Positions 36,474-41,727 of a stretch of 64,000 nucleotides of DNA are shown here, in pieces; the stretch's first letter is position 1, and every line of letters begins with the position of its first letter. Origin of the DNA: Candidatus Poribacteria bacterium (lineage in GTDB: Bacteria; Poribacteria; WGA-4E; PCPOR2b); NCBI GenBank assembly GCA_965116925.1, contig OZ220744.1, forward strand, positions 3,744,001-3,808,000, given 5' to 3'. The notes under the pieces were generated by a model. The model made no database searches. It was not told where the DNA came from and was given only the letters and a program-made list of their open reading frames with translations. Made by a program: the position numbers and the translations under genes.

Positions 36474-36640
36474 AACTTGGAAAGGAGATTTCGGTCAGTT
36501 ACCCCGCCCTGAAGGGACGGGGCTTGTTTGAAACGTCCGTCCAACGGGTCTTACAAGGTTCTGCGCTTCTGTCCCCTGACGGGGGATTTCGGGGTCGTTT
36601 GCAACCGACGCACCTCCACGCAAGGCTACAGCAGCCTTTT
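36474..36640 (-). ncRNA. Predicted omega/reRNA of TnpB-1 (5' boundary approximate)
   Basis: Overlaps the tnpB 3' tail and right-end hairpin; the flank gives guide CGAAAUCUCCUUUCCAAGUU. Confidence 0.6.
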
Positions 36641-37721
36641 TGATATTTATCGCGGCGTTATGGTCTCTATTGAGGACCAACCCACAATGGGGGCAATCAT
36701 GGAGACGATCCGACAACTGTTTAGGCACAACTTCATTACAACCGGAGCATTGCTGACTGGTATGGTGAGGTTTCACTTTCGTGAACTGCTTGCCGGCACT
36801 TGCAGCCTTGCTTTGCAGTTTCAATCGAAAGCTACCCCATCCCGCGTCAGATATACTCTTGGCGAGGTAGTGGTTCTTCAACATATTGGTGATGGTCAAG
36901 TTCTCTACAGCGACCTCATCACATCGTTCAAGGAGACGATGGGCTGCCTTGAACTGAAAATCCTTGCGCTGATTCACTATCCGTTCATGGCAACGGGCGA
37001 CAATCTCACGTTGTTTTGCTCGGCGGCGGCTCCCCTTTTTGCGGCGAGACAATACGCATTGATGTTTGCCAAGCTTCTTTTCGGATTTACGATAATGGCG
37101 GAGGTTTGGGATATGTTCGCCATCAGAATCGACAGCAAACGAGTTAAGTCCCACGTCTACGCCAATCGTCGTGTGGACAGGGACTTCTATAGGGGCTGGC
37201 ACTTCGACGCAGATAGTTACATACCAACCGCTGGCTCGCTTGATGACCGTCAGATTCTTGATGTTGCCGTCAGGTAAAGGACGGTGATAACGAATCTTGA
37301 GGTGTCCTATTTTCGGAACAACGACTTTGGCAAACTTACGATGTACACTCCGGACCAGCTGCTTGGACAGGTGGCTAAAGGTCATTGACCGGTATCGCCC
37401 TTCGCCTTTGAAGCGGGGGAAGCCCGGTGCCGCCCCGTTCTTGGCACGGCGGAAGAATGCTTTGTACGCTTTATCCAAACGGCGCATCGCATCTTGGAGA
37501 ACATCCGCGTGAAGTCCTGCAAATGCCTTGGATGCTGCTTTCAAGTCAGGTAAGGCGTTGGCTTGGGTCGTCCATTTGACAGAATCGTTATTTTTCTGGT
37601 AAGCGTCTATCCGCCACGCTAACGCTTGATTGTAGAGATTTCGCAACAAGGCAAGCCAAAACAAAAAAGTATGTCGCTGTTTCGTCGTAGGATAGGCGCG
37701 ATATTCATAAGTCTTTTTCAT
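36495..37721 (-). CDS. tnpB: RNA-guided endonuclease TnpB, canonical RuvC
   Basis: YEYRAYPT helix-turn-helix start, GVDVG, AVENL, TSQQCSGC...CPHCG...RDHNAA. Confidence 0.93.
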   Translation of the reverse strand: MKKTYEYRAYPTTKQRHTFLFWLALLRNLYNQALAWRIDAYQKNNDSVKWTTQANALPDLKAASKAFAGLHADVLQDAMRRLDKAYKAFFRRAKNGAAPGFPRFKGEGRYRSMTFSHLSKQLVRSVHRKFAKVVVPKIGHLKIRYHRPLPDGNIKNLTVIKRASGWYVTICVEVPAPIEVPVHTTIGVDVGLNSFAVDSDGEHIPNLRHYRKSEKKLGKHQCVLSRRKKGSRRRAKQREIVARCHERIVNQRKDFQFKAAHRLLERCDEVAVENLTITNMLKNHYLAKSISDAGWGSFRLKLQSKAASAGKQFTKVKPHHTSQQCSGCNEVVPKQLSDRLHDCPHCGLVLNRDHNAAINIKKAAVALRGGASVANDPEIPRQGTEAQNLVRPVGRTFQTSPVPSGRGN

Positions 37722-37736
37722 GCTGGTTAGCTTTCT

Positions 37737-37812
37737 GGCTTTCATTCCTTTTCTACGAGGTGTAGGGGACATCCCGAAGGGTTCGGGATGGTAGAAATCC
37801 CCTACGAAAGCC
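37737..37812 (-). ncRNA. Pseudoknotted tnpB 5'-leader RNA, copy 1
   Basis: Four perfectly paired helices; same topology as 40272-40346. Confidence 0.7.
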
Positions 37813-37818
37813 ATAAGA

Positions 37819-37847
37819 ACTGTACCATATTTCACACAACTTTTCAA
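37819..37847 (-). promoter_or_regulatory. Sigma70-type promoter of tnpB-1
   Basis: TTGAAA-17 nt-TACAGT with extended TG. Confidence 0.6.
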
Positions 37848-37908
37848 CGAAAAAGGAGCGCAGTTTCCTCCCCGCTCTAAAGAATGGGGGCTCCACTGCG
37901 AAGATTTG

Positions 37909-38760
37909 ATGAACAATCAAGATGTCAAACTGACGGATCAGCAGATCAATTTTTTTCAGACCTTCGGTTATCTAAGCTTCCCCGGATTCTTGGCAGACCG
38001 TAGCGAGGAAATCATCAATGCGTTTGAAGCGGTTTGGGCGGAACGTGGAGGAGGCCATAACGGGAAACCCCACGAGGGGACAGCACGCTCCTGTATCGTT
38101 CCGTTCATCGATCAGAGCGAATATTTATCGTCTCTGTTAGATGACCCCCGTATATTGAGAATAGCGACCACGCTTCTCGGTGACGACTTCAACTATATGG
38201 GCAGCGATGGGAACTACTACGTCGGAGATACGCGCTGGCATTCTGATGGGGGACACAAACCGGAGGATCCTACCCACCTCAAAATTGCATTTTACCTCGA
38301 TCATCTAACCCGTGACACCGGTGCCCTGCGCGTCATTCCCGGCAGCCATCTCTTTGGGGATGGTTACGCGGATCGGCTTCAGGAGGAGATTCGGGAGAGT
38401 GAAGCAGACTGGGGCGTTCATGGCAAGGATGTGCCAGCAATCGCATTCGAGACGCAGCCGGGGGATGTGGTGTGTTTCAATCACAATACCAAGCACGCTG
38501 CGTTTGGCGGCGGCACACGCCGACGGATGTTTACCATGAACCTTTGTGAACGTTATCCCGAAAATCGTTTGGAGGACCTACGCACCTACATCGGCAACTC
38601 AGCGCGGTTCTGGATCGACCGCAAATATGGTCCGAAGATGGTAGGTACTGCGGGCCCTGAACGGATAGTGCACTTAGAACAGGTGATGGCTAACGATGGG
38701 CATCTCGCTGAGCTTTCACGTAAAGCGCAGGAAACAATGAGCGAACCTTCGCGTGGGTAA
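37909..38760 (+). CDS. PhyH family dioxygenase separated from its RBS
   Basis: FFQTFGYL, WHSD, VIPGSH, PGDVVCFNHNTKHA. Confidence 0.88.
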   Translation: MNNQDVKLTDQQINFFQTFGYLSFPGFLADRSEEIINAFEAVWAERGGGHNGKPHEGTARSCIVPFIDQSEYLSSLLDDPRILRIATTLLGDDFNYMGSDGNYYVGDTRWHSDGGHKPEDPTHLKIAFYLDHLTRDTGALRVIPGSHLFGDGYADRLQEEIRESEADWGVHGKDVPAIAFETQPGDVVCFNHNTKHAAFGGGTRRRMFTMNLCERYPENRLEDLRTYIGNSARFWIDRKYGPKMVGTAGPERIVHLEQVMANDGHLAELSRKAQETMSEPSRG

Positions 38761-38814
38761 GTTCTCCGCTAGTGTAGCGCGTTCATCCTCTCATTTCACA
38801 CAACTACGATTTGT

Positions 38815-38853
38815 GTTCAGGGGTTCAAGGGTTGTTAAACCCCTGAACTTTTT
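38815..38853 (+). terminator. Rho-independent terminator
   Basis: GTTCAGGGGTT...AACCCCTGAAC-TTTTT between convergent genes. Confidence 0.7.
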
Positions 38854-38871
38854 GTAGCATTCATAGGTCGG

Positions 38872-39912
38872 CTAAAAAGCTGACTGCACCCTTTCCGCCT
38901 TCCCGCTCCTTGCAGACCGCTCGCAGGCATCTAACACAGCGATGACCTTCGTACCGACCTCTGCGTTAATTAGTGGCTGTTTGTTGTGCTTGAGGCAGTC
39001 TTCAAAATGTAGCATATAACGCACCACTTCACCGATATGTCCAACATCGGCAATCTCATCTGTCCCTATAGAAGCGGCCTCTTCGACGGGGATGATGCTG
39101 CGATGGTCATCATCGAAAATCGCATCCCCATTGACAACACTGCCGGCAGTTCCGTAGACCGATAGCCCTAGCATTGGCATCGGTGCATGACAGAGACCGT
39201 AAAGCCCTAGGACACGGCCGAGCCGCCCATCCTCATAGATTAGATTGACCATCCAGTTGTCGTTGAAATGTCCCTCACCTGACGGATATCGCTCATCAAT
39301 TCCGCTTTCATGGGCAATCGCATGTACGGCACTGGGGAAACCGAGAAACCAGATAATCAGATCCATTGGATGACACAGTCCGCCGTAGAGCGTTTTCTGA
39401 GGCATCTGGTGTCTCCACGGTGTCGCTGTTAGCACGCTGCGCATATCATGGACATAATGGGCTTCGACTGCGACGATATTGCCAAGTTTGCCAGCTTCCA
39501 TTAATCGGTGCGTGTGCATAAAATCTGGTCGAAAGCGGCAGGTCTGTCCAACCATGAGTTTCAAACCGGTTTCCCGCGTCCTCTGCAATACACGAACCGC
39601 ATCGTCAAGGCTGTCAACAAACCCTTTTGTGCAGATTATATGCTTGCCACAATCGAGAGCGTCAAGGCAGTGCTGTGCGTGAAGTGGATCCGGTGTGTAA
39701 ATGCCCACGATGTCGATTTCATCCCGCTGGAGGAGTTCCCGATAATCCATCGTTGCAAACGGAACATTATGTTCTGTACGGATGCTTTCCAGCCGATCCG
39801 CATCTGTATCGCAAATCCCCCGGATTTCCAGATCGGTATCGGGAATCTGTCGAATCCCAAACATCGACTTTCCCATCCCTAACCCAATAATCCCAACGCC
39901 AATTTTCTCCAT
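38872..39912 (-). CDS. Gfo/Idh/MocA family oxidoreductase
   Basis: IGVGIIGLGMG, GKHIICTK; AGGAGG RBS. Confidence 0.85.
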   Translation of the reverse strand: MEKIGVGIIGLGMGKSMFGIRQIPDTDLEIRGICDTDADRLESIRTEHNVPFATMDYRELLQRDEIDIVGIYTPDPLHAQHCLDALDCGKHIICTKGFVDSLDDAVRVLQRTRETGLKLMVGQTCRFRPDFMHTHRLMEAGKLGNIVAVEAHYVHDMRSVLTATPWRHQMPQKTLYGGLCHPMDLIIWFLGFPSAVHAIAHESGIDERYPSGEGHFNDNWMVNLIYEDGRLGRVLGLYGLCHAPMPMLGLSVYGTAGSVVNGDAIFDDDHRSIIPVEEAASIGTDEIADVGHIGEVVRYMLHFEDCLKHNKQPLINAEVGTKVIAVLDACERSARSGKAERVQSAF

Positions 39913-40071
39913 GTCTCTATCGCCTCCTGTTGTAGATGTCAAAATTACCCATTTTTCCCGCGAAAATGCGAAAATTGTTTCCACCTCAAAGTTGAGGATT
40001 ATATCATAGATTATGAATTGCATTACAAACAAAGACATTTTAATTTTATGTTACGAAAAACCCTTTAGGTC

Positions 40072-40177
40072 TATAGTAGATTTTAGAATTAATGAGACAC
40101 TGCAAATCGGCGCAGTTGGAAACAGCGCCTACCAGATGAGGAGCGAAAGTGTCTGTTTATTTTTTAAATTCACTATA
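40072..40177 (+). mobile_element. MITE family C (TATA-flanked) with REP-like cargo
   Basis: TATAGTAGATTTTAGAATTAAT...TTTTTAAATTCACTATA; close copy at 45337-45444. Confidence 0.8.
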
Positions 40178-40236
40178 AATCCCAATCCTTTAGGTTTGGA
40201 GCATTTGGGGCGCAGCCTATACAGATTGCTTTAGCA

Positions 40237-40265
40237 TCGACTTTTCAGGAGAAATATGGTATACT
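40237..40265 (+). promoter_or_regulatory. Sigma70-type promoter of tnpB-2
   Basis: TCGACT-17 nt-TATACT with extended TG; GAAATATGGTA shared with the tnpB-1 promoter. Confidence 0.65.
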
Positions 40266-40271
40266 TGTCCC

Positions 40272-40346
40272 GTCTTTCGGTGGGAAGGTTCGACACCATC
40301 GCACGGTGGTGCTTCCCACACCCTATCGAACAGGAAGACGAAAGAC
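40272..40346 (+). ncRNA. Pseudoknotted tnpB 5'-leader RNA, copy 2
   Basis: Four helices that covary with copy 1. Confidence 0.7.
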
Positions 40347-40362
40347 CGAAAGGACCCTCCCC

Positions 40363-41514
40363 ATGTATACAACCAAGAAGCTGAAATATGATAAGACCCC
40401 TGACTTGGATATGCTTGCTCACGAGTCTGGTCGTTGCTATTGCAAAGTTGTGTCTTTACTCTGGAAAGTCAAGCGGAAGAAAGGGTTTTGGCTATCACAA
40501 GGTGCAGTCCAAAAGTATATGCGTTTGCGTGGCTACAATCTACACTCACAAACGGTACAAGCGATAATCCAATCCTATTTTGATTCGCTCAAGAGTTACT
40601 TTCGGGCTGTCGAGTCAAATCCTGAAGCGAAGCCACCAAAACGGACTCCTCATTTCTACAAGGTGCGTTGGATTCAAAATGGCATCGCCTTCAAAGATGG
40701 TGTCGTCAGGTTGTCTAATGGTAAAGGCAATGCGCCTATTACCCTCAAATCAGATGTCAAACCGGTCTATGTGGAGATGTACTTCCAACGGGGGAGTTAC
40801 TACTTTTCACTTGTCTACAAGGTGCATACACCCCCCAAGTGTGAAACAGACAAAGCGGTTGCGATAGACATGGGTGAGATTCACCCGATAGTTTCTCATG
40901 ACGGACAACAGACCATCATCTACAATGGTCGTGCGTTACGGGCTATCAAACAGTATATCAACAAGTTTAAGGCACATATCCAATCTAAAATGGATAGGTG
41001 TATCAAACGAAGTAATCGCTGGTATCGTCTCAAACGAGTTAAGACCAAGATACTGGCAAAGTTGAACGCTCAACTGAAGGACGCCGAACATAAAATCACA
41101 TCTCGATTTATATCCGACTGCTTAAAGGCGAAGGCGGATACGATAGTGATTGGAGACCTAAAAAGTATCCGGGATAGAGCGAAGTTTTCTAAGAAGTCTA
41201 ACCAGAAGGTTCACCAATGGGCGTTTGCCCGTCTCCAATTCATGATATGCTACAAAGCAGAGTTAGCAGGACTCAAAGTCAAGGTTGTATCCGAGGCATA
41301 CACCTCTCAGACCTGCCCACGGTGTGGCAATCGAAAGAAACCGACAAACCGGAACTATCACTGCAATCACTGTAGCTTTGAATACCACCGAGACGGTGTT
41401 GGTGCAATCAACCTTTGGAACAAAGTATCGGGATTCCTGTTGAGTCCCGTAGTTGGGGCGATGGTGTCCCCGATAGGTGTCAGATTTGATTGGCACCTAT
41501 GTAAATCTGGCTAA
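40363..41514 (+). CDS. tnpB: TnpB with rearranged RuvC-II
   Basis: AIDMG, IVIGDL, VSEAYTSQTCPRCG...CNHC...HRDGVGAINL. Confidence 0.9.
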   Translation: MYTTKKLKYDKTPDLDMLAHESGRCYCKVVSLLWKVKRKKGFWLSQGAVQKYMRLRGYNLHSQTVQAIIQSYFDSLKSYFRAVESNPEAKPPKRTPHFYKVRWIQNGIAFKDGVVRLSNGKGNAPITLKSDVKPVYVEMYFQRGSYYFSLVYKVHTPPKCETDKAVAIDMGEIHPIVSHDGQQTIIYNGRALRAIKQYINKFKAHIQSKMDRCIKRSNRWYRLKRVKTKILAKLNAQLKDAEHKITSRFISDCLKAKADTIVIGDLKSIRDRAKFSKKSNQKVHQWAFARLQFMICYKAELAGLKVKVVSEAYTSQTCPRCGNRKKPTNRNYHCNHCSFEYHRDGVGAINLWNKVSGFLLSPVVGAMVSPIGVRFDWHLCKSG

Positions 41515-41727
41515 CATAGTGGATAAGAATCCCAATGCTTTCGCTTTGGGAGTACGTCAATGGATTTTTAGGGAAAACGCAAGCCTACTGAAGCAATTAT
41601 GTCGAACAATAGAATTTTGCTTGTATAAAAATTTGGTTTGTGCTACAATATGGCAAACTTTTGGAAATTGTCATACCATAAACCATATTCGTTCACTTTA
41701 GAATGAATCTTTTCCGAGGAGGTAACA

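Follow-up and report, generated by a model that had tools for sequence, protein, structure and literature searches.

In this study, two structured leaders preceding tnpB genes were investigated in a stretch of 64,000 nucleotides (nt) from a Candidatus Poribacteria bacterium (assembly GCA_965116925.1, contig OZ220744.1, positions 3,744,001 to 3,808,000 of the forward strand), hereafter called the window. Each leader is about 76 bases long, lies at the predicted very start of the tnpB messenger RNA (mRNA) and carries a 5′ strand that can pair with either of two tandem repeats, the second of which stands at the putative ribosome-binding site. Comparative analysis of related sequences demonstrated the helices, a pseudoknot, both pairing registers, the position relative to the promoter and the start codon, and the nature of the leader as a cassette. 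The best reading of this arrangement, to which we give about an even chance, is a bistable two-state gate that would set or limit the translation of TnpB. The new observations are the three-way covariation of the 5′ strand with both repeats and the existence of sister elements without the leader.

Both leader sequences written out in the initial annotation matched the DNA exactly (37812-37737, minus strand; 40272-40346, plus strand). The P1, P2 and P3 hairpin elements and the pseudoknot proposed there were borne out by folding and strand complementarity: the minimum-energy folds of both copies consist of P1, P2, a bulge and P3, together with a small additional hairpin, P4, and the bases of the bulge complement those of the P4 loop (UUUCUAC with GUAGAAA in copy 1, GUUCGA with UCGAAC in copy 2). 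The fold of copy 1 reached −35.4 kcal/mol, compared with −18.5 ± 2.9 kcal/mol for shuffled sequences (z −5.9; 0 of 200 as good), and that of copy 2 reached −31.3 kcal/mol, compared with −20.0 ± 3.1 kcal/mol (z −3.6; 1 of 200 as good). The extended −10 element placed shortly before both leaders corresponds to TG-extended promoter-like sites, each ending 6 nt before P1, and the second GAAAG precedes the ATG by 9 nt in copy 1 and by 10 nt in copy 2. The downstream proteins had been called divergent; both are TnpB according to Pfam, and they share 24% identity over 215 residues. The motif had also been described as shared by two tnpB elements. Both copies in the window are real, but the motif is common to hundreds of elements.

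The structure was found to exceed chance by covariation across 88–89 distinct related sequences, 88 of which were aligned to model R2. In this alignment, which is fitted to the model and thus favours the structure, 95.5% of the cells in the nested helices can pair, compared with 72.0% in shuffles and 46.5–59.2% with the partners slid. Double-sided changes occurred at 24 of the 26 nested pairs, and the covariation score of 0.674 (vs 0.226) was attained by 0 of 500 shuffles. The paired share was 95.7% for P1, 98.0% for P2, 99.0% for P3 and 83.7% for P4; on the earlier R1 alignment, P1–P3 showed 97–98%. Kinship among copies inflates such cell counts, and distinct strand combinations were therefore counted as well. 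The helix cells contained 101 G-U against 43 A-C oppositions, an excess that fits the sense strand as the folded strand.

The pseudoknot was measured in each sequence separately because loop lengths differ. At least five contiguous pairs between the bulge and the P4 loop were present in 80 of 89 sequences, representing 55 distinct strand pairs, and the mean helix was 5.9 bp, compared with 3.9 bp when bulges and loops of different sequences were combined. Within 12 rows of one register, which were chosen because they fit that register, five of the six pseudoknot pairs change on both sides. A single column register over all sequences failed, with 66% of cells paired (alignment A4), and R2 brought no remedy.

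The 5′ strand (7 nt) complements two non-overlapping sites at 6 or more of its 7 positions in 83 of the 89 sequences. Shuffled 5′ strands did so in a mean of 19 sequences (maximum 30), and 5′ strands swapped between sequences in 11.7 (maximum 20). There were 49 distinct triplets and 31 distinct 5′ strands; examples, given as 5′ strand, repeat 1 and repeat 2, are GUCUUUC/GAAAGAC/GAAAGAC, CCGUUUC/GAAACGG/GAAACGG, UCCUUCC/GGAAGGA/GGAAGGA, AUCAGGU/ACCUGAU/ACCUGAU and GCGUUGU/ACAACGC/ACAACGC. The three strands stay in step across unlike lineages (5′ strands CCGUUUC, UCCUUCC, AUCAGGU, UCACAGU, AUCACAC, GCGUUGU and CAUUGCU), and where the two repeats deviate from each other, wobble pairing accommodates the change (GAAAGCC/GAAAGCU opposite G; GGAAGGU/GAGAGGU). 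Repeat 2 is a better partner of the 5′ strand than repeat 1 in 13 sequences. Of the 51 sequences with an open reading frame (ORF) starting 10–30 nt on, 48 have repeat 2 ending 3–9 nt upstream of the start codon, and in the other three (L076, L077 and L082) repeat 2 overlaps the AUG. The 16S ribosomal RNA (rRNA) gene ends at its 3′ side with ...CACCTCCTTTCT, the tail portion being ...CCTCCTTTCT; given this end, AGAAAG resembles a Shine-Dalgarno sequence in the main lineages, in which GNCUUUC is a mimic of the anti-Shine-Dalgarno tail. The possible switch at the ribosome-binding site suggested in the initial annotation is thus strongly backed by the covariation of the 5′ strand with both downstream repeats.

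Two other features near the start codon were considered. A conserved pyrimidine run (AUCCC or UCCCC) stands just before the start codon in most lineages of Poribacteria family f1 (e.g., window 40355-40362); pairing of this run with the P2 5′ strand fits some lineages and does not track the changes in P2, and was dropped. An upstream AUG at the joint of P4 and repeat 1 was rejected as a true start or upstream ORF: it shares the reading frame of tnpB in copy 1 but not in the MKTYKFK family, elsewhere ACG, UUG, GUG, AUC or CCG stands in its place, and the preceding AGGA is just 1–2 nt away.

The leader appears together with its promoter as a discrete unit. Of 88 related sequences, 63 have a TAnnnT hexamer whose end lies 5–8 nt upstream of the 5′ strand. 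Three sisters of the copy-1 element, about 70% identical to it, have the same left end and the same tnpB start and lack a block of about 105 nt that corresponds to the −10 box, the leader and repeat 1 (G000:C1:5977452-5977620, plus; 1037320-1037488, minus; 4090900-4091350, plus). The last of these also carries an additional insertion of about 130 bp within tnpB. The leader type is common to at least five TnpB families with different N-termini (MKTYKFK..., MKKTYEYR..., MVKTYQYR..., MLKTHKIAL... and MYTTKK...), and further leader-bearing TnpB families occur in family f2. The portability proposed in the initial annotation agrees with both observations, and, judged from these comparisons, promoter and leader form a discrete movable cassette of about 105 nt. 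The genes that follow are mainly but not exclusively tnpB. The 29 copies in this genome comprise 23 before a TnpB-type ORF, one before a UvrD-like helicase gene and five without an ORF of 100 codons. The copy before the helicase gene (L044; G000:C1:5833003-5833081, plus) has the 5′ strand CCGUUUC, two GAAACGG repeats and its own promoter. In other genomes, variants L098, L101 and L128 precede a GIY-YIG/NUMOD3 nuclease gene, a 74-residue lipoprotein-like ORF and a 119-residue secreted-type ORF, respectively.

The distribution of the leader was determined with covariance model R1, which was built from 11 variants of this genome; a MAFFT alignment of all variants was dropped as the model base on account of a misplaced gap at the P1/P2 joint. 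In this genome, nhmmer gave 31 hits at E < 1e-3 (28 distinct), and R1 gave the 29 copies described above. R1 matched 33 out of 61 related genomes, among them 18 of the 19 that belong to the genus, and the number of scored matches in a genome reached 75. Of 151 genomes drawn from the phylum, 62 gave matches (21 of 25 in family f1, 35 of 100 in f2 and 5 of 10 in f3). No match was found in the 15 genomes searched from families f4–f9, a result that applies to those genomes and makes no claim of absence. The sequence pattern of the main type occurred at 56 places among 185,579 species genomes, all in metagenome-assembled genomes of Candidatus or uncultured Poribacteria, and had 0 matches in viral contigs. 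The leader heads hundreds of natural tnpB genes in sponge-associated Poribacteria.

In the proposed mechanism, the motif would be the 5′ untranslated leader of the tnpB mRNA, carried with its own sigma-70-type promoter and placed, as the cassette, after the left-end hairpin and ahead of the tnpB start codon. The RNA would start at or beside the 7-nt 5′ strand and would fold into a three-way junction formed by P1, a long P2-bulge-P3 arm and the short P4 hairpin, which a pseudoknot of 5–7 bp between the P2/P3 bulge and the P4 loop would lock. The 5′ strand, resembling the 3′ tail of 16S rRNA, could pair with either tandem repeat. We infer that its pairing with repeat 1 (P1) would close the junction and leave repeat 2, the Shine-Dalgarno site or AUG overlap, free in an ON state, and that its pairing with repeat 2 (P1′) would bury the ribosome landing site in an OFF state, so that translation would differ between the two. 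The balance might be shifted by the order of co-transcriptional folding, by a protein or by the ribosome itself, or by none of these, in which case the leader would act as a fixed attenuator.

In favour of two states, constrained folding gives both registers nearly the same energy on average (difference 0.02 ± 2.7 kcal/mol; P1 the lower in 48 of 83 sequences, P1′ in 33 of 83), although the energy model ignores the pseudoknot and this near-equality is only approximate. Several observations weigh against such a gate. The second site is lacking in 6 of 89 sequences, and L102 has a single repeat. Covariation cannot separate pairing of repeat 2 with the 5′ strand from a requirement that repeat 2 equal repeat 1. 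In L047/L014 (G000:C1:402007-402089, minus), the same A-to-C change is present in both repeats (GCAAGAC twice), uncompensated in the 5′ strand; this double change hints that both repeats change jointly. The helicase gene behind L044 has a separate Shine-Dalgarno site (AAAGAGG) about 20 nt downstream, and in non-tnpB contexts the start codon is far from repeat 2 (20 nt in L128, 49 nt in L098), so that a gate at the ribosome site cannot work alike there. ORF-less remnants in family f3 keep both repeats with nothing to translate.

The last of these points are shared by an explanation that we consider unlikely but the strongest of the alternatives, namely that the leader only stabilises or insulates. 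A 5′-terminal fold would then guard the mRNA from decay that depends on the 5′ end and would provide a 5′ end independent of context, and repeat 2 would merely be a Shine-Dalgarno site that resembles repeat 1 since both match the 16S tail. The RNA is indeed predicted to begin with the 5′ strand, which is paired in either register, variants persist before genes that start far from repeat 2 as well as in ORF-less elements, and the helix sequences vary freely, as expected if shape alone counts. However, repeats that are not Shine-Dalgarno-like (GAAACGG, ACCUGAU, ACAACGC, ACUGUGA and GUGUGAU) still complement the 5′ strand, and positions 6–7 of repeat 2 track positions 1–2 of the 5′ strand, which a match to 16S does not need. 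Such a function also has no need for a pseudoknot or a second register. A true sensor is rather unlikely: here the pseudoknotted junction would read a cellular or transposon signal (a protein, the TnpB-guide complex, the ribosome, an ion or a ligand) and, as a new class of bistable switch, would release TnpB translation only for a short period, for example one nuclease matched to one guide RNA per mRNA; different selfish nuclease genes would have captured it as a plug-in cassette of promoter and switch. It is distinctly improbable that the leader is an operator worked by a protein, in which TnpB, the TnpB-RNA complex or a host protein would bind the junction or pseudoknot and shift the register, the TnpB case amounting to autoregulation. 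The strong association with tnpB (23 of the 29 copies in this genome), the retention of shape while sequence varies, as in RNA operators recognised by proteins, and the near-isoenergetic states, which a small binding energy could tip, would suit an operator of this kind; one leader type, however, serves at least five TnpB families with identity as low as 24%. TnpB autoregulation in particular is weakened because variants precede helicase, GIY-YIG nuclease and small secreted-protein genes. Mimicry of the scaffold bound by TnpB was not detected, as R2 matched each 3-kb locus once and never within the guide-RNA part.

The riboswitch-like and ribozyme functions entertained in the initial annotation fared less well, and either is unlikely given the scarcity of conserved unpaired bases: conservation of at least 85% was reached by just 2 unpaired core columns in 87 distinct sequences. 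For a small-molecule riboswitch, judged very improbable, the junction and pseudoknot would be the aptamer and the choice between P1 and P1′ the expression platform. Many aptamers are pseudoknotted junctions, and a P1 strand that alternatively pairs with a copy at the ribosome site follows the logic of translational riboswitches; a suitable expression platform is present in the three-way covariation (83 of 89) and in the placement of repeat 2 at 3–9 nt before the AUG or on it. A conserved unpaired pocket was not found, the junction linkers measure 0–3 nt, no Rfam family matches, and the controlled gene is a transposon nuclease rather than a metabolic gene. A self-cleaving ribozyme, similar in role to the pistol, hatchet or hepatitis delta virus (HDV) ribozymes and trimming read-through transcripts, has a slighter chance still. 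Mobile elements often carry ribozymes, and pistol likewise has a hairpin loop that pairs with the internal loop of the neighbouring stem in a pseudoknot of roughly 6 bp. The leader differs from pistol in the order of its elements, in its closing P1 with two registers, in having no model match and no conserved core, and in passing straight from P3 to P2 on the 3′ side, opposite the bulge, with no unpaired bases where pistol has its cleavage site. No ribozyme model matched even at E up to 10, and the promoter directly in front leaves little to trim. Least probable of all is a signal at the DNA level, a structure in single-stranded transposon DNA serving TnpA-mediated transposition. IS200/IS605 transposition uses hairpins of the top strand, which here is the sense strand, and the genome has five Y1 transposase hits. 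However, a separate subterminal left-end hairpin exists (37848-37907), and the motif is lacking both in the three sisters with that left end and in two derivatives resembling miniature inverted-repeat transposable elements (MITEs), in which the left end is reduced to its first 69 nt; the leader was accordingly rejected as the TnpA recognition hairpin. The motif is, moreover, tied to the promoter and start codon, tolerates G-U pairs and also stands before non-transposon genes.

With regard to known RNAs, the omega RNA of TnpB is also a structured non-coding RNA of the same elements, with a pseudoknot known from ISDra2 structures. It differs in lying at the 3′ or right end with the guide, whereas the leader lies between the promoter and the ATG on the left-end side. 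No second R2 match per locus and no similar fold in the 3′ parts were found, and the leader was ruled out as the TnpB guide RNA by its position at the wrong end of the element and by the lack of an R2 match in the guide-RNA part. The initial annotation had not recognised the motif, and a search of 10 kb of the window and seven related loci against Rfam 15 (4227 models) gave no match at E up to 1. Relaxing the threshold to E of 10 yielded only five noise matches, with 10.6–15 bits against gathering scores of 36–66, and the best of them (15 bits against a gathering score of 66) was on the wrong strand. The searched library includes the IS605-orfB-I model (RF03065), an Rfam motif named for its link to IS605 orfB, that is, tnpB (PMC11701678), and the leader does not match it.

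Control by mRNA structure has precedents among mobile elements, and fold-back inhibition of translation is known from IS10 and IS50. The closest working analogue found, a likeness of operation, is the timP (RyfA) type I toxin mRNA of enterobacteria. This mRNA is reported to adopt exclusive conformations of which only the active conformer has a pseudoknot, and the other hides the ribosome-binding site, an antisense small RNA acting as the switch (PMC11228461). Both systems appear to share mutually exclusive mRNA conformations over the ribosome site and a product that is harmful if made in excess; they differ in that the leader has no sequence or model similarity to timP and would work by a slip of the 5′-strand register between tandem repeats. 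A consensus scan, a weak test, revealed no opposite-strand promoter at either leader. For IS200 tnpA, a simple stem-loop in the 5′ untranslated region is reported together with control by antisense RNA and Hfq (PMC4513863). As proposed for the leader, a transposon protein of the same IS200/IS605 superfamily is kept low there by mRNA structure at the translation start, whereas the leader is predicted to control tnpB and has a pseudoknotted three-way junction, two registers and a cassette that bears a promoter. IS200 tnpA, IS10/IS50 and timP are marked by a conserved helix spanning the Shine-Dalgarno site or the start codon, and the present leader has such a helix in P1′, which covaries in 31 5′-strand lineages. 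The likeness to transposase and toxin leaders that sequester the ribosome site would be one of working, not of homology.

TnpB, from which Cas12 descends, is a compact nuclease for genome editing, and how transposons restrain it is an open question. Published layers of control involve the guide RNA, introns and DNA-binding repressors. The literature search gave no paper joining TnpB and Poribacteria, and none on a tnpB 5′ leader among the titles and abstract openings that it covered. If translation is gated as proposed, the leader would add a new post-transcriptional control layer for RNA-guided nucleases and would be a compact part (about 85 nt) open to reuse as a synthetic riboregulator. It also offers a clean natural case of three-way covariation supporting a bistable RNA.

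Table 1. Positions of the leaders, their parts and the surrounding elements in the window.
Feature	Position	Strand	Basis or remark
IS200/IS605-type tnpB-only element, copy 1, about 1415 bp	36493..37907	minus	blastn and empty-site contigs
Left-end region, copy 1, with subterminal hairpin CCCCCATTC TTTA GAGCGGGG, separate from the leader	37848..37907	minus	alignment with sister left ends
Promoter-like site TTGAAA-17-TACAGT, TG before −10 box	37819..37847	minus	consensus scan
Leader core, copy 1	37737..37812	minus	fold, models R1 and R2, covariation
Copy 1 P1 5′ strand	37812-37806	minus	
Copy 1 P2	37805-37798 with 37769-37762	minus	
Copy 1 pseudoknot 5′ strand	37797-37791	minus	
Copy 1 P3 hairpin	37790-37770	minus	
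Copy 1 pseudoknot 3′ strand, within P4 loop	37756-37750	minus	
Copy 1 repeat 1 (P1 3′ strand)	37743-37737	minus	
Copy 1 repeat 2 GAAAGCU, putative alternative 5′-strand partner, Shine-Dalgarno-like	37729..37735	minus	7 nt before ATG
tnpB copy 1, 408 residues	36495..37721	minus	Pfam OrfB_IS605 1.3e-25, Cas12f1-like_TNB 2e-21, HTH_OrfB_IS605 2.6e-9
IS200/IS605-type tnpB-only element, copy 2, approximate ends	40179..41561	plus	blastn and contig changes
Promoter-like site TCGACT-17-TATACT, TG before −10 box	40237..40265	plus	consensus scan
Leader core, copy 2	40272..40346	plus	fold, models R1 and R2, covariation
Copy 2 P1 5′ strand	40272-40278	plus	
Copy 2 P2	40280-40287 with 40312-40319	plus	
Copy 2 pseudoknot strands	40288-40293 and 40326-40331	plus	
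Copy 2 P3	40294-40311	plus	
Copy 2 repeat 1	40340-40346	plus	
Copy 2 repeat 2 GAAAGGA, Shine-Dalgarno-like	40348..40354	plus	8 nt before ATG
tnpB copy 2, 383 residues	40363..41514	plus	Pfam Cas12f1-like_TNB 8.2e-22, OrfB_IS605 2e-13

The host elements and their ends were delimited by blastn and by assembled contigs (Table 1). The copy-1 element has five further copies in the genome, with 95–97% identity over q1 388-1807. In 16 sequencing runs that contain part of the window, 10 of them recorded as RNA, the data were kept as assembled contigs. Contigs of runs X1, X2 and X5 connect position 36492 with 37908/37909 and join both flanks, and part of the population is thus without the copy-1 insertion. 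Contigs of X1, X2, X5 and X7 cover tnpB and the leader and revealed no transcript starts or ends. Several of them stop at 37755 inside the leader; these stops were rejected as RNA ends and read as assembly breaks within a multi-copy region. Copy 1 is ordered as the left-end hairpin region (37907-37848), promoter (37847-37819), leader (37812-37737), repeat 2 (37735-37729) and ATG (37721), the leader lying about 95 nt inside the left end and stopping before the ATG. For copy 2, similarity to other elements begins on the left at q2 277 and extends on the right until q2 1661-1663, and contigs change at its borders, 40178 and 41561; its ends are less certain than those of copy 1. This genome has 26 TNB-domain hits, of which 21 are headed by a leader according to their coordinates.

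The six copy-1-type elements have identical leaders from P1 to repeat 2, one copy differing by a single base of the −10 box. By contrast, four versions of the 5 nt that directly precede the ATG (CCAGC, CCCCT, CCCAT and CTCAT) are present when window 37722-37728 is compared with the other five copies. The first 69 nt of the copy-1 left end recur, paired with the right end and without tnpB or leader, in MITE-like elements; two such pairs (G000:C1:4433296-4433703 and 4161432-4161828) combine these 69 nt with the last 60 nt of the right end. A repeat of about 108 bp (window 40072-40178) adjoins copy 2 on the left, has several hundred copies in the genome with 80–100% identity, and shows the top summed contig depth in RNA-library runs (bin 40054-40227: 435–1479). 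An ORF-less element at G000:C1 about 4656950-4657340 (minus) has a copy-2-like left end and a TTTACT-17-TATACC promoter, and a different, strongly folded RNA of about 260 nt takes the place of the leader; this may be a gene-less guide-RNA element.

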